From positions 1 through 21,794 of the IMG/VR virus record IMGVR_UViG_2737471841_000006: a stretch of 21,794 nt of DNA; one strand, written 5' to 3'. Position 1 is the first letter of the stretch, and the number at the start of each line of letters is the position of its first letter. The stretch is from a virus (taxonomy: Duplodnaviria > Heunggongvirae > Uroviricota > Caudoviricetes). This document shows positions 14,956 through 15,746 of the stretch, piece by piece. Both the position numbers and the translations under genes were made by a program. The notes under the pieces were generated by a model. It was not told the DNA's origin. It made no database searches and saw nothing but the letters and a program-made list of their open reading frames with translations.

Positions 14956-15417
14956 ATGAGGTTATGGATGTTTATTCTTAATCAGAAAATTATCATCGGT
15001 GGAGAACGCTGGTTTACGCCAATGAAGGACTTAAAACCTGTAGATGGGTTAAAACTGTTGGTGGCAAGCAGCGATAACGATCAGTATCGCTCCCGTAATG
15101 CATTAATCCGTCGTCACATAGAGAAAATGGATGCCAGTTTGCATGTCGGAACGAAAGAATTTGATATTGCAAAGGTCGACGAGGTGGATTCTGTTGATGA
15201 TTTACTTATTGATAACGCCGCTCGTTATTTACTGAAAGACTGGAAAGGGGTTGGTGAACTGGTGGATGGGGTTGAGGTCGCGCTGGAATATACACCAGAG
15301 CGAGGGGCCACGCTGCTCAAGCAGAATCCAGAGTTGTACTGGCAAATTCTTGCTGAAGCCGCCAGCATCGCCCAGGGAAAAGAGCAGCAGAAGCAGGATA
15401 CGATAAAAAAGCCATAG
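14956..15417 (+). CDS. Tail assembly chaperone (lambda gpG analogue), zero-frame product, 153 aa
   Basis: Gene directly upstream of the tape measure module, ending 6 nt after a canonical slippery heptamer. AGGGA 8 nt upstream of the ATG. Alternative starts at 14968 or 15022. Confidence 0.6.
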   Translation: MRLWMFILNQKIIIGGERWFTPMKDLKPVDGLKLLVASSDNDQYRSRNALIRRHIEKMDASLHVGTKEFDIAKVDEVDSVDDLLIDNAARYLLKDWKGVGELVDGVEVALEYTPERGATLLKQNPELYWQILAEAASIAQGKEQQKQDTIKKP

Positions 15418-15746
15418 CCGCCCAGCGGTGGTTATCGGAGTTCGGGGGCGAAAAGGGGGAAAAGGCAAGGTGGACGAGAGAAAAACTCAGGTTGCCACCG
15501 ATACCGGAGCCAGAAATAGACCCCGTTGTCCGTGAGTTATTGTATGCGTACTCAGTAATGTCTCGTTCCAGGCGTTATGCGGGCATGTCCGGGGTTCCGC
15601 TGCCTTTATCAATATCTGACGTGCACGACTACTTAAAAGCACACCCAATATTGATAGATAGTGATGAATTTGAAGCAGTGATCTTTGCGCTGGATGATCA
15701 GTATGTTTCTCAATCCAAAACTGTTGATGGGATATTGATTAATTAA
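14956..15746 (+). CDS. Tail assembly chaperone -1 frameshift fusion product (lambda gpGT analogue), slip at A_AAA_AAG 15405-15411
   Basis: The -1 frame is open without stops from the slippery site through 15746 (..KK-AIAAQRWLSEFGGEKGEKARWTREKLRLPPIPEPEIDPVV..). A small hairpin ccgc-cca-gcgg begins about 5 nt after the heptamer. Confidence 0.5.

Follow-up and report, generated by a model that had tools for sequence, protein, structure and literature searches.

The window, by which we mean the whole 21,794-nt stretch of DNA that was analyzed, carries on its plus strand a series of tail genes in the following order: the major tail (tube) protein gene (13947..14909), the chaperone gene that we call G (14968..15417), the extension in the -1 reading frame that we call T (15411..15746), an Ail/Lom/OmpX-family outer membrane protein gene (15904..16440), and the tail tape measure protein gene (16510..19743). 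The tube gene, which adjoins G on its upstream side, has an identical sequence in RefSeq under the name "phage tail tube protein," and its homologue is labeled "BIG2 domain-containing protein" in related phage records. The 1077-aa product of the tape measure gene matches TIGR01541 (tape_meas_lam_C) at an E value of 1.5e-65, above the cut-off, and RefSeq agrees with this assignment. The product of the gene between T and the tape measure gene matches the NCBIfam OmpX model NF006917 at an E value of 4e-39, below the curated cut-off, and is named "Ail/Lom family outer membrane beta-barrel protein" in RefSeq. The stretch from 14900 to 16550 has counterparts of 100% identity in the chromosomal prophages of several complete Escherichia coli genomes (e.g., NZ_CP076272).

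Where does G begin, and what kind of protein is it? An alternative start upstream, ATG 14956, would yield a G of 153 aa. The N termini of the homologues all align to ATG 14968, which has GAGG 6 nt upstream, and because every homologue begins at the residue encoded by this ATG, we take G to be a protein of 149 aa. Its assignment as the zero-frame tail assembly chaperone is based on these homologue starts together with family and fold matches. G matches the profile of PHROG 313, "tail assembly chaperone," at an E value of 1.4e-46 (profile positions 15-149), and the conceptual GT fusion matches the same profile better than G alone does, at 4.2e-51 and over positions 20-248 of 258. T alone matches PHROG 1189 at 5e-31. 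The match of T to the Pfam family PF23812 (Phage_TAC_18) scores 16 bits, under the 27-bit gathering threshold (E = 0.013; positions 12-77 of 79), and matches to this family are similarly weak in 11 of 14 sequences (T and 10 of 13 homologues), the best E value being 2.4e-4. Every G homologue returned carries a precomputed PF27119.1 tag, including one that is 99% identical (P0004); G itself found no match in a copy of Pfam that lacks the PF27119 model. An NCBIfam search of G and GT gave no match and no model, and the lack of an NCBIfam model for G fits the RefSeq label "hypothetical protein." The AlphaFold model of G, built from a 45-sequence alignment, has a pLDDT of 81 and a pTM of 0.73 (a shallow input of 23 sequences, with an Neff of ~1.6, gave a pLDDT of 46 and was discarded). 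Compared with BFVD, this model has 12 matches at E values of 1e-3 or lower, several of which are predicted structures named as tail assembly or tape measure chaperones.

Near the 3' end of G, at 15405..15411 on the plus strand, lies the slippery heptamer A_AAA_AAG. The zero frame around it reads ...ACG ATA AAA AAG CCA TAG; given the codons ATA AAA AAG, the heptamer stands in the X_XXY_YYZ phase that is needed for tandem -1 slippage, and it is a candidate site for such slippage by tRNA-Lys. In E. coli, A_AAA_AAG is intrinsically shift prone because both of its codons are read by one tRNA-Lys. The zero-frame stop of G, the TAG at 15415..15417, is the second codon after AAG, at a position that varies among relatives. 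The -1 frame is open from 15357 onward and ends with a stop at 15744-15746. The first codon after a slip would be GCC at 15411, giving T 111 sense codons and a stop, and the conceptual fusion, join(14968..15411,15411..15746), would be 259 aa long, or 263 aa if ATG 14956 were used. An earlier note, made by reading the sequence alone, had placed the heptamer at these positions and in this phase, which the sequence and its translation bear out. Its description of the heptamer as lying two codons before the zero-frame stop is acceptable, its figure of 112 open codons to 15746 agrees with ours if the stop is counted, and its estimate of about 265 aa for the fusion product is close to either of the lengths given above.

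The heptamer alone is not unusual, as AAAAAAG occurs 10 times across the window against an expectation of 7.9 copies. In the late genes there are 13 slippery heptamers in phase, and a long -1 open reading frame (ORF) follows only the two that lie inside the G gene, with lengths of 111 and 121 codons; behind the rest, the -1 ORFs reach at most 37 codons. The second heptamer inside G is G_GGA_AAA (15375..15381, plus strand), 10 codons upstream of A_AAA_AAG and within the part of G where the -1 frame is already open. Elsewhere, an in-phase A_AAA_AAA at 14852-14858 lies in the tail tube gene, 16 codons ahead of its stop; this heptamer leads into a -1 extension of just 12 codons and is probably incidental.

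The comparison drew on 80 loci from IMG/VR, 17 from species-representative genomes, and a number of annotated phage records, and the slip-site codons were tabulated in 102 related loci. A canonical heptamer is found at the homologous codons in 98 of them, A_AAA_AAG in 92 and G_GGA_AAG in 6. The codons read ATA AAA AAG in Escherichia-type relatives (71 loci), GTA AAA AAG in Citrobacter/Klebsiella-type relatives (21 loci), and GTG GGA AAG in 6 loci from Raoultella, Serratia, Pantoea, two Tatumella, and one Acinetobacter phage. The 4 loci with noncanonical heptamers belong to distant relatives that keep the two-frame G/T arrangement: CTG GAA AAG (G_GAA_AAG) in the Pseudomonas phages Aurca01 and phiPSA1 (L100/L103), GTG GGG AAG (G_GGG_AAG) in Pectobacterium odoriferum (L094), and GTC GCA AAG (C_GCA_AAG) in Erwinia phage Gungnir39 (L101). 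If G_GAA_AAG, C_GCA_AAG, and G_GGG_AAG do still shift, then P-site re-pairing would be dispensable in the PHROG 313/YdaY-type chaperone family. Across the canonical sites, the preceding codon covaries with the heptamer, with ATA or GTA found before AAA and GTG before GGA, and where G_GGA_AAG takes the place of A_AAA_AAG, the preceding valine codon also changes synonymously, GTA to GTG, which restores the first base of the heptamer. Judged from the alignments, this coupled change is the mark of selection on tRNA re-pairing and not on the protein.

The pattern of variation among relatives switches codon phase at the heptamer. DNA alignments are gapless across the G/T boundary at both 87% and ~71% identity. 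Upstream of the heptamer, the variable columns, counted by codon phase, number 13/8/34 and fall mostly on zero-frame third positions; from the heptamer on, they number 8/22/9 and fall mostly on -1-frame third positions (chi-square, p = 4e-5), and the heptamer is invariant in the alignment set used for this count. Pairwise differences in T by -1-frame codon position are distributed as 15/10/41, and T is conserved as a protein among relatives. The length of the -1 extension is 109-119 codons, falling to 39-61 codons only in three loci that are truncated or damaged, and the zero-frame stop lies 0, 1, 7, 20, 25, 29, or 35 codons past the slip site, depending on the relative. A lack of conservation of the extension in related phages had been named in the earlier note as grounds against a frameshift; the extension proved to be conserved.

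How, then, would T be translated? There is no ATG or GTG start in the -1 frame before 15558, which is 49 codons past the slip site. The sole earlier candidate, TTG 15492, is not preceded by a Shine-Dalgarno sequence, and one relative has CTC in its place; the 27 codons that separate it from the slip site are conserved as protein (AQ.WL.EFGGE.GEK). T has no conserved start of its own, and coding constraint in the -1 frame begins at the heptamer itself.

The conservation of the heptamer, the switch in phase, and a conserved -1 protein without a start of its own make a G/GT-type frameshift almost certain. With a probability of about 90%, we read the site as a signal for programmed -1 ribosomal frameshifting of the lambda G/GT type, located in the gene for the tail assembly chaperone of a Rac-like prophage. 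The earlier note had likewise proposed a canonical -1 site in a tail assembly chaperone with the lambda G/GT arrangement, and gene order, family and fold matches, and the comparative evidence all support that proposal. We posit the following mechanism, for which the published lambda gpG/gpGT system serves as the analogy (PMC5009743). Most ribosomes would read ATA AAA AAG CCA TAG and release the 149-aa G. A minority would slip with AAA in the P site and AAG in the A site; both tRNA-Lys molecules would re-pair one base back, on A-AAA-AAA, and reading would restart at GCC (15411). The slipped ribosomes would add the 111 residues of T and finish as the 259-aa GT. By analogy with lambda, many copies of G and a few of GT would bind the tape measure protein, with the G parts coating it and the T part recruiting the tail tube protein, the partners here being those suggested by the lambda system. 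The frequency of slipping, presumably low, would fix the GT:G ratio at a low value. Both G and GT, each of which a lambda-type pair requires for building the tail, would leave the finished tail, such that neither would be part of the virion.

Could the shift be made in the RNA rather than on the ribosome? RNA polymerase could drop one A in the run of six A's at the site, in which case GT would be encoded in a single frame. Transcriptional slippage is efficient only at runs of about 8 to 9 or more, and the relatives are informative on this point, as six of them keep the G/T arrangement with GGGAAAG, without any long homopolymer, and four more keep it with GGAAAAG, GGGGAAG, or CGCAAAG. Because the arrangement is retained with GGGAAAG, slippage on the A6 run is unlikely to be the explanation; although slippage on A/T runs is known to yield frameshifted products (PMC5009743), we consider this route highly improbable here. 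What is conserved is the potential for tRNA re-pairing in the right codon phase and not the length of the run. Is the ribosome instead shifting, wholly or in part, at the upstream G_GGA_AAA? This heptamer is also in phase in an already open -1 frame, and the fusion made by a shift there would be just as long but would differ over 10 residues at the junction. Against it, the heptamer is unconserved, the common Rac-type relatives having GGT AAA at the matching codons and one relative having GCT AAA; the columns that vary between the two heptamers still follow the zero frame; and its last base is A, not G. A final A rather than G gives a weaker drive to slip for the E. coli tRNA-Lys. That the upstream heptamer accounts for the shift is thus very unlikely in our estimation, while it could contribute a minor isoform in this lineage.

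Two further readings do away with frameshifting altogether. In one, T is a separate small protein whose translation starts internally or is coupled to that of G, and the heptamer is there by coincidence. Depositors and gene callers do give the downstream ORF as a small "hypothetical protein" (66 aa in ON470581 and 83 aa in Pseudomonas phages), and a TTG is present at 15492; yet the -1 coding constraint sets in 27 codons before that TTG, which has no ribosome binding site and is replaced by CTC in a relative, an ATG or GTG comes no earlier than 15558, and the heptamer stays in phase in 98 of 102 loci, even through a coupled change of two codons. We find this reading extremely improbable. In the other, G and T are one ORF split by a one-base change in a homopolymer, through decay of the gene or an artifact of sequencing. 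The prophage in the window does carry three deletions relative to intact relatives, and rare database proteins do join G and T in one frame (e.g., P0001), but in P0001 the single frame is due to a separate deletion upstream that leaves the A run unchanged. The gapless two-frame arrangement, moreover, recurs in more than 100 loci from Escherichia, Shigella, Citrobacter, Klebsiella, Raoultella, Serratia, Pantoea, Tatumella, Acinetobacter, and Pseudomonas phages, and the sequence itself is the same, to the last base, in several complete genomes; the probability of decay or artifact is close to negligible. Two other database proteins, P0002 and P0003, were considered as natural single-frame G-T fusions and set aside: they read through in other frames and probably reflect assembly or sequencing errors.

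Is there a stimulator at the site? The lambda G/T frameshift needs none. In the window, a hairpin is predicted directly 3' of the heptamer (15412..15438, plus strand), with 11 imperfect pairs, one bulge, and a CAGC loop at 15423-15426. Its folding energy is -14.4 kcal/mol, with a z score of -3.4 in a 36-nt context and of -1.3 in a 48-nt context. Since no spacer separates it from the heptamer, only the upper five pairs stand at the conventional distance of ~6 nt. The earlier note had described a hairpin, ccgc-cca-gcgg, at about 15417-15427 and at a stimulatory distance. That claim was not supported: the motif lies one base further on, at 15418-15428, and the fold of lowest energy pairs in a different register, directly adjoins the heptamer, and lacks conservation. 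Of 13 representative relatives, 7 have a disrupted upper stem, the upper stem is gone in relatives at ~71% identity, and a consensus fold of the region (alifold) leaves four pairs. We found no compensatory changes or covariation in the hairpin among relatives by alifold; pair counting gave 70% paired cells, with double changes not in excess; and single-sequence folds downstream of the site, in the relatives and in lambda, were no better than shuffles. After these three comparisons, we dropped the hairpin as a conserved stimulator and treat it as a predicted, lineage-specific feature. An Rfam search returned no frameshift element, its sub-threshold matches falling only on a terminator described below. 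The only Shine-Dalgarno-like element is AGGA at 15395-15398, which ends 6 nt before the heptamer. One may speculate that the stable hairpin at the heptamer and the second heptamer together tune output toward an unusually high or dual-site production of GT, maybe offsetting the insertion of the Ail/Lom gene and its terminator; we regard this as unlikely.

Among known systems, the closest in arrangement is that of the lambda tail assembly chaperones gpG and gpGT, the work on which is reportedly that of Levin, Hendrix, and Casjens in 1993 and of Xu, Hendrix, and Duda in 2004, 2013, and 2014. As in lambda, two overlapping ORFs follow the major tail gene and precede the tape measure gene, an in-phase heptamer lies shortly before the first ORF ends, and the second ORF, which lacks its own start, is read in the -1 frame. 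The sizes are also comparable, with a G of 149 aa here and 140 aa in lambda and a T that adds 111 aa here, set beside an annotated lambda T ORF of 144 aa. The exact heptamer found in the lambda G/T overlap, G_GGA_AAG, is present in some of the relatives, whereas the window has A_AAA_AAG. The zero-frame stop comes one codon after the heptamer here and 5 codons after it in lambda. A further difference is that the lambda T overlaps H directly, whereas here an Ail/Lom gene with its own terminator lies between T and the tape measure gene. A search for homology of the extension to T domains of gpGT-like proteins had been suggested in the earlier note; in hhalign, the T alignment against gpT and the G alignment against gpG each gave a probability of 0.1%, with no detectable similarity. 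The likeness to lambda is one of arrangement and mechanism, not of sequence family. The HK97 tail assembly chaperone (PDB 2OB9) is also among the closest known systems.

The site also invites comparison with E. coli dnaX, which has the identical heptamer A_AAA_AAG, read by the same single tRNA-Lys, and a stem-loop downstream, where the window has a stable predicted hairpin. Unlike in dnaX, the hairpin here has no spacer and is unconserved, and the AGGA lies only 6 nt upstream of the heptamer, as opposed to the spacing of ~10 nt for the Shine-Dalgarno-like element of dnaX. The dnaX-type pairing of a conserved stem-loop at 5-9 nt with a Shine-Dalgarno-like element at ~10 nt is not found here. 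The output of dnaX is a roughly 1:1 truncation; from the A_AAA_AAG site here, a low level of extension is expected.

Closer to home, the G of the window is the full-length counterpart of YdaY from the Rac prophage of E. coli K-12, within the PF27119/PHROG 313 chaperone family, and the G homologue is called "putative protein YdaY" or "ydaY: protein YdaY" in related records. We found nothing on function in the literature on ydaY. In some E. coli strains, 5'-truncated copies of the chaperone gene are joined to unrelated upstream coding sequence (P0020 and P0063; L089/L090), and one such fusion is named ParB N-terminal domain-containing protein. These truncated copies are consistent with deletion remnants of Rac-type prophages, like the K-12 ydaY locus.

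The class of signal is a textbook one; the G/GT signal here is genuine and well conserved, and it is unannotated in the public records that we inspected. For the identical sequence, RefSeq starts the chaperone at TTG 15058 and gives a 119-aa "hypothetical protein" that lacks the first 30 residues counted from the conserved start, with T unannotated. In GenBank phage records, T appears as a separate small hypothetical protein, and a joined G/GT product is annotated in none of the public records inspected. The value of the finding lies in annotation: in the inspected records, the Rac/YdaY-type G is either started at the wrong codon or left as "hypothetical," GT is missing, and NCBIfam has no model. 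The family is also widespread: of 5426 complete E. coli genomes, over 1000 carry it, and it occurs as well in Citrobacter, Klebsiella, Serratia, Acinetobacter, and Pseudomonas phages. The comparison supplies a rule by which join(14968..15411,15411..15746) and its equivalents can be annotated, namely, that two canonical heptamers alternate at one codon position and that the preceding codon changes with them synonymously.

What sort of element carries the signal? The host element is a Rac-like lambdoid prophage of E. coli. The RefSeq gene order in NZ_CP076272 runs from the terminase through the portal, a P22-type capsid, the tail terminator, the tail tube, and the 119-aa "hypothetical protein" to the Ail/Lom protein, the tape measure, and the tail tip proteins L, K, I, and J. 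The prophage in NZ_CP076272 also contains enterotoxin A-family and enterotoxin genes. According to the literature, type II heat-labile enterotoxins sit in full-sized Rac-like prophages, and the Ail/Lom-type insert of the window belongs to a toxin-carrying prophage lineage.

With the prophage of E. coli E21845/O/A (NZ_CP076272) taken as the intact reference, the window shows three internal deletions, at 8559-8564, 9921-9922, and 20017-20018. At the first of these, ~16.5 kb is gone between the int/recET/sieB arm and the large terminase gene, a span that holds lysis and enterotoxin genes in the part of the intact prophage that was inspected. The second removes ~2.05 kb, comprising most of the portal and minor head genes, and the third removes ~3.66 kb, from tail gene M into J. 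The junctions at 8559-8564 and 9921-9922 are spanned by none of the complete E. coli genomes searched. The element looks defective, or else its assembly has collapsed. Portal, minor head, and tail tip genes that intact relatives possess are missing from the copy in the window, and the frameshift signal may therefore have lost its role in making virions in this element.

The Ail/Lom gene between T and the tape measure gene is specific to this lineage and is missing in most relatives; a locus that contains it was found in 19 of 5426 complete E. coli genomes at a coverage of at least 80% of the 14900-16550 query. The GC content drops to 31-41% over the insert region (window positions 15600-16500). 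At the end of the inserted gene, and 24 nt ahead of the tape measure start, lies a strong hairpin resembling an intrinsic terminator (16464..16486, plus strand), with a ten-pair stem that includes 7 G-C pairs, followed by the T run TTTTATTTGT; it is on this element that the Rfam matches below threshold cluster. With its low GC content and its terminator-like hairpin, the Ail/Lom gene has the classic look of an accessory "moron" insert. In the unlikely tuning scenario raised above, the Ail/Lom gene and its terminator, placed between GT and the tape measure gene, could alter the stoichiometry of chaperone to tape measure protein. Because other small genes occupy the same spot in Klebsiella, Pseudomonas, and Acinetobacter relatives, accessory genes may have been inserted repeatedly at the position between T and the tape measure gene. 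At the 3' end of T, similarity at the DNA level to the common Rac-type relatives ends near 15707, and the C terminus of T reads ...DDQYVSQSKTVDGILIN here and ...DDQYFQEQCV in those relatives; this end (15707-15746) may have been remodeled on the arrival of the low-GC insert.
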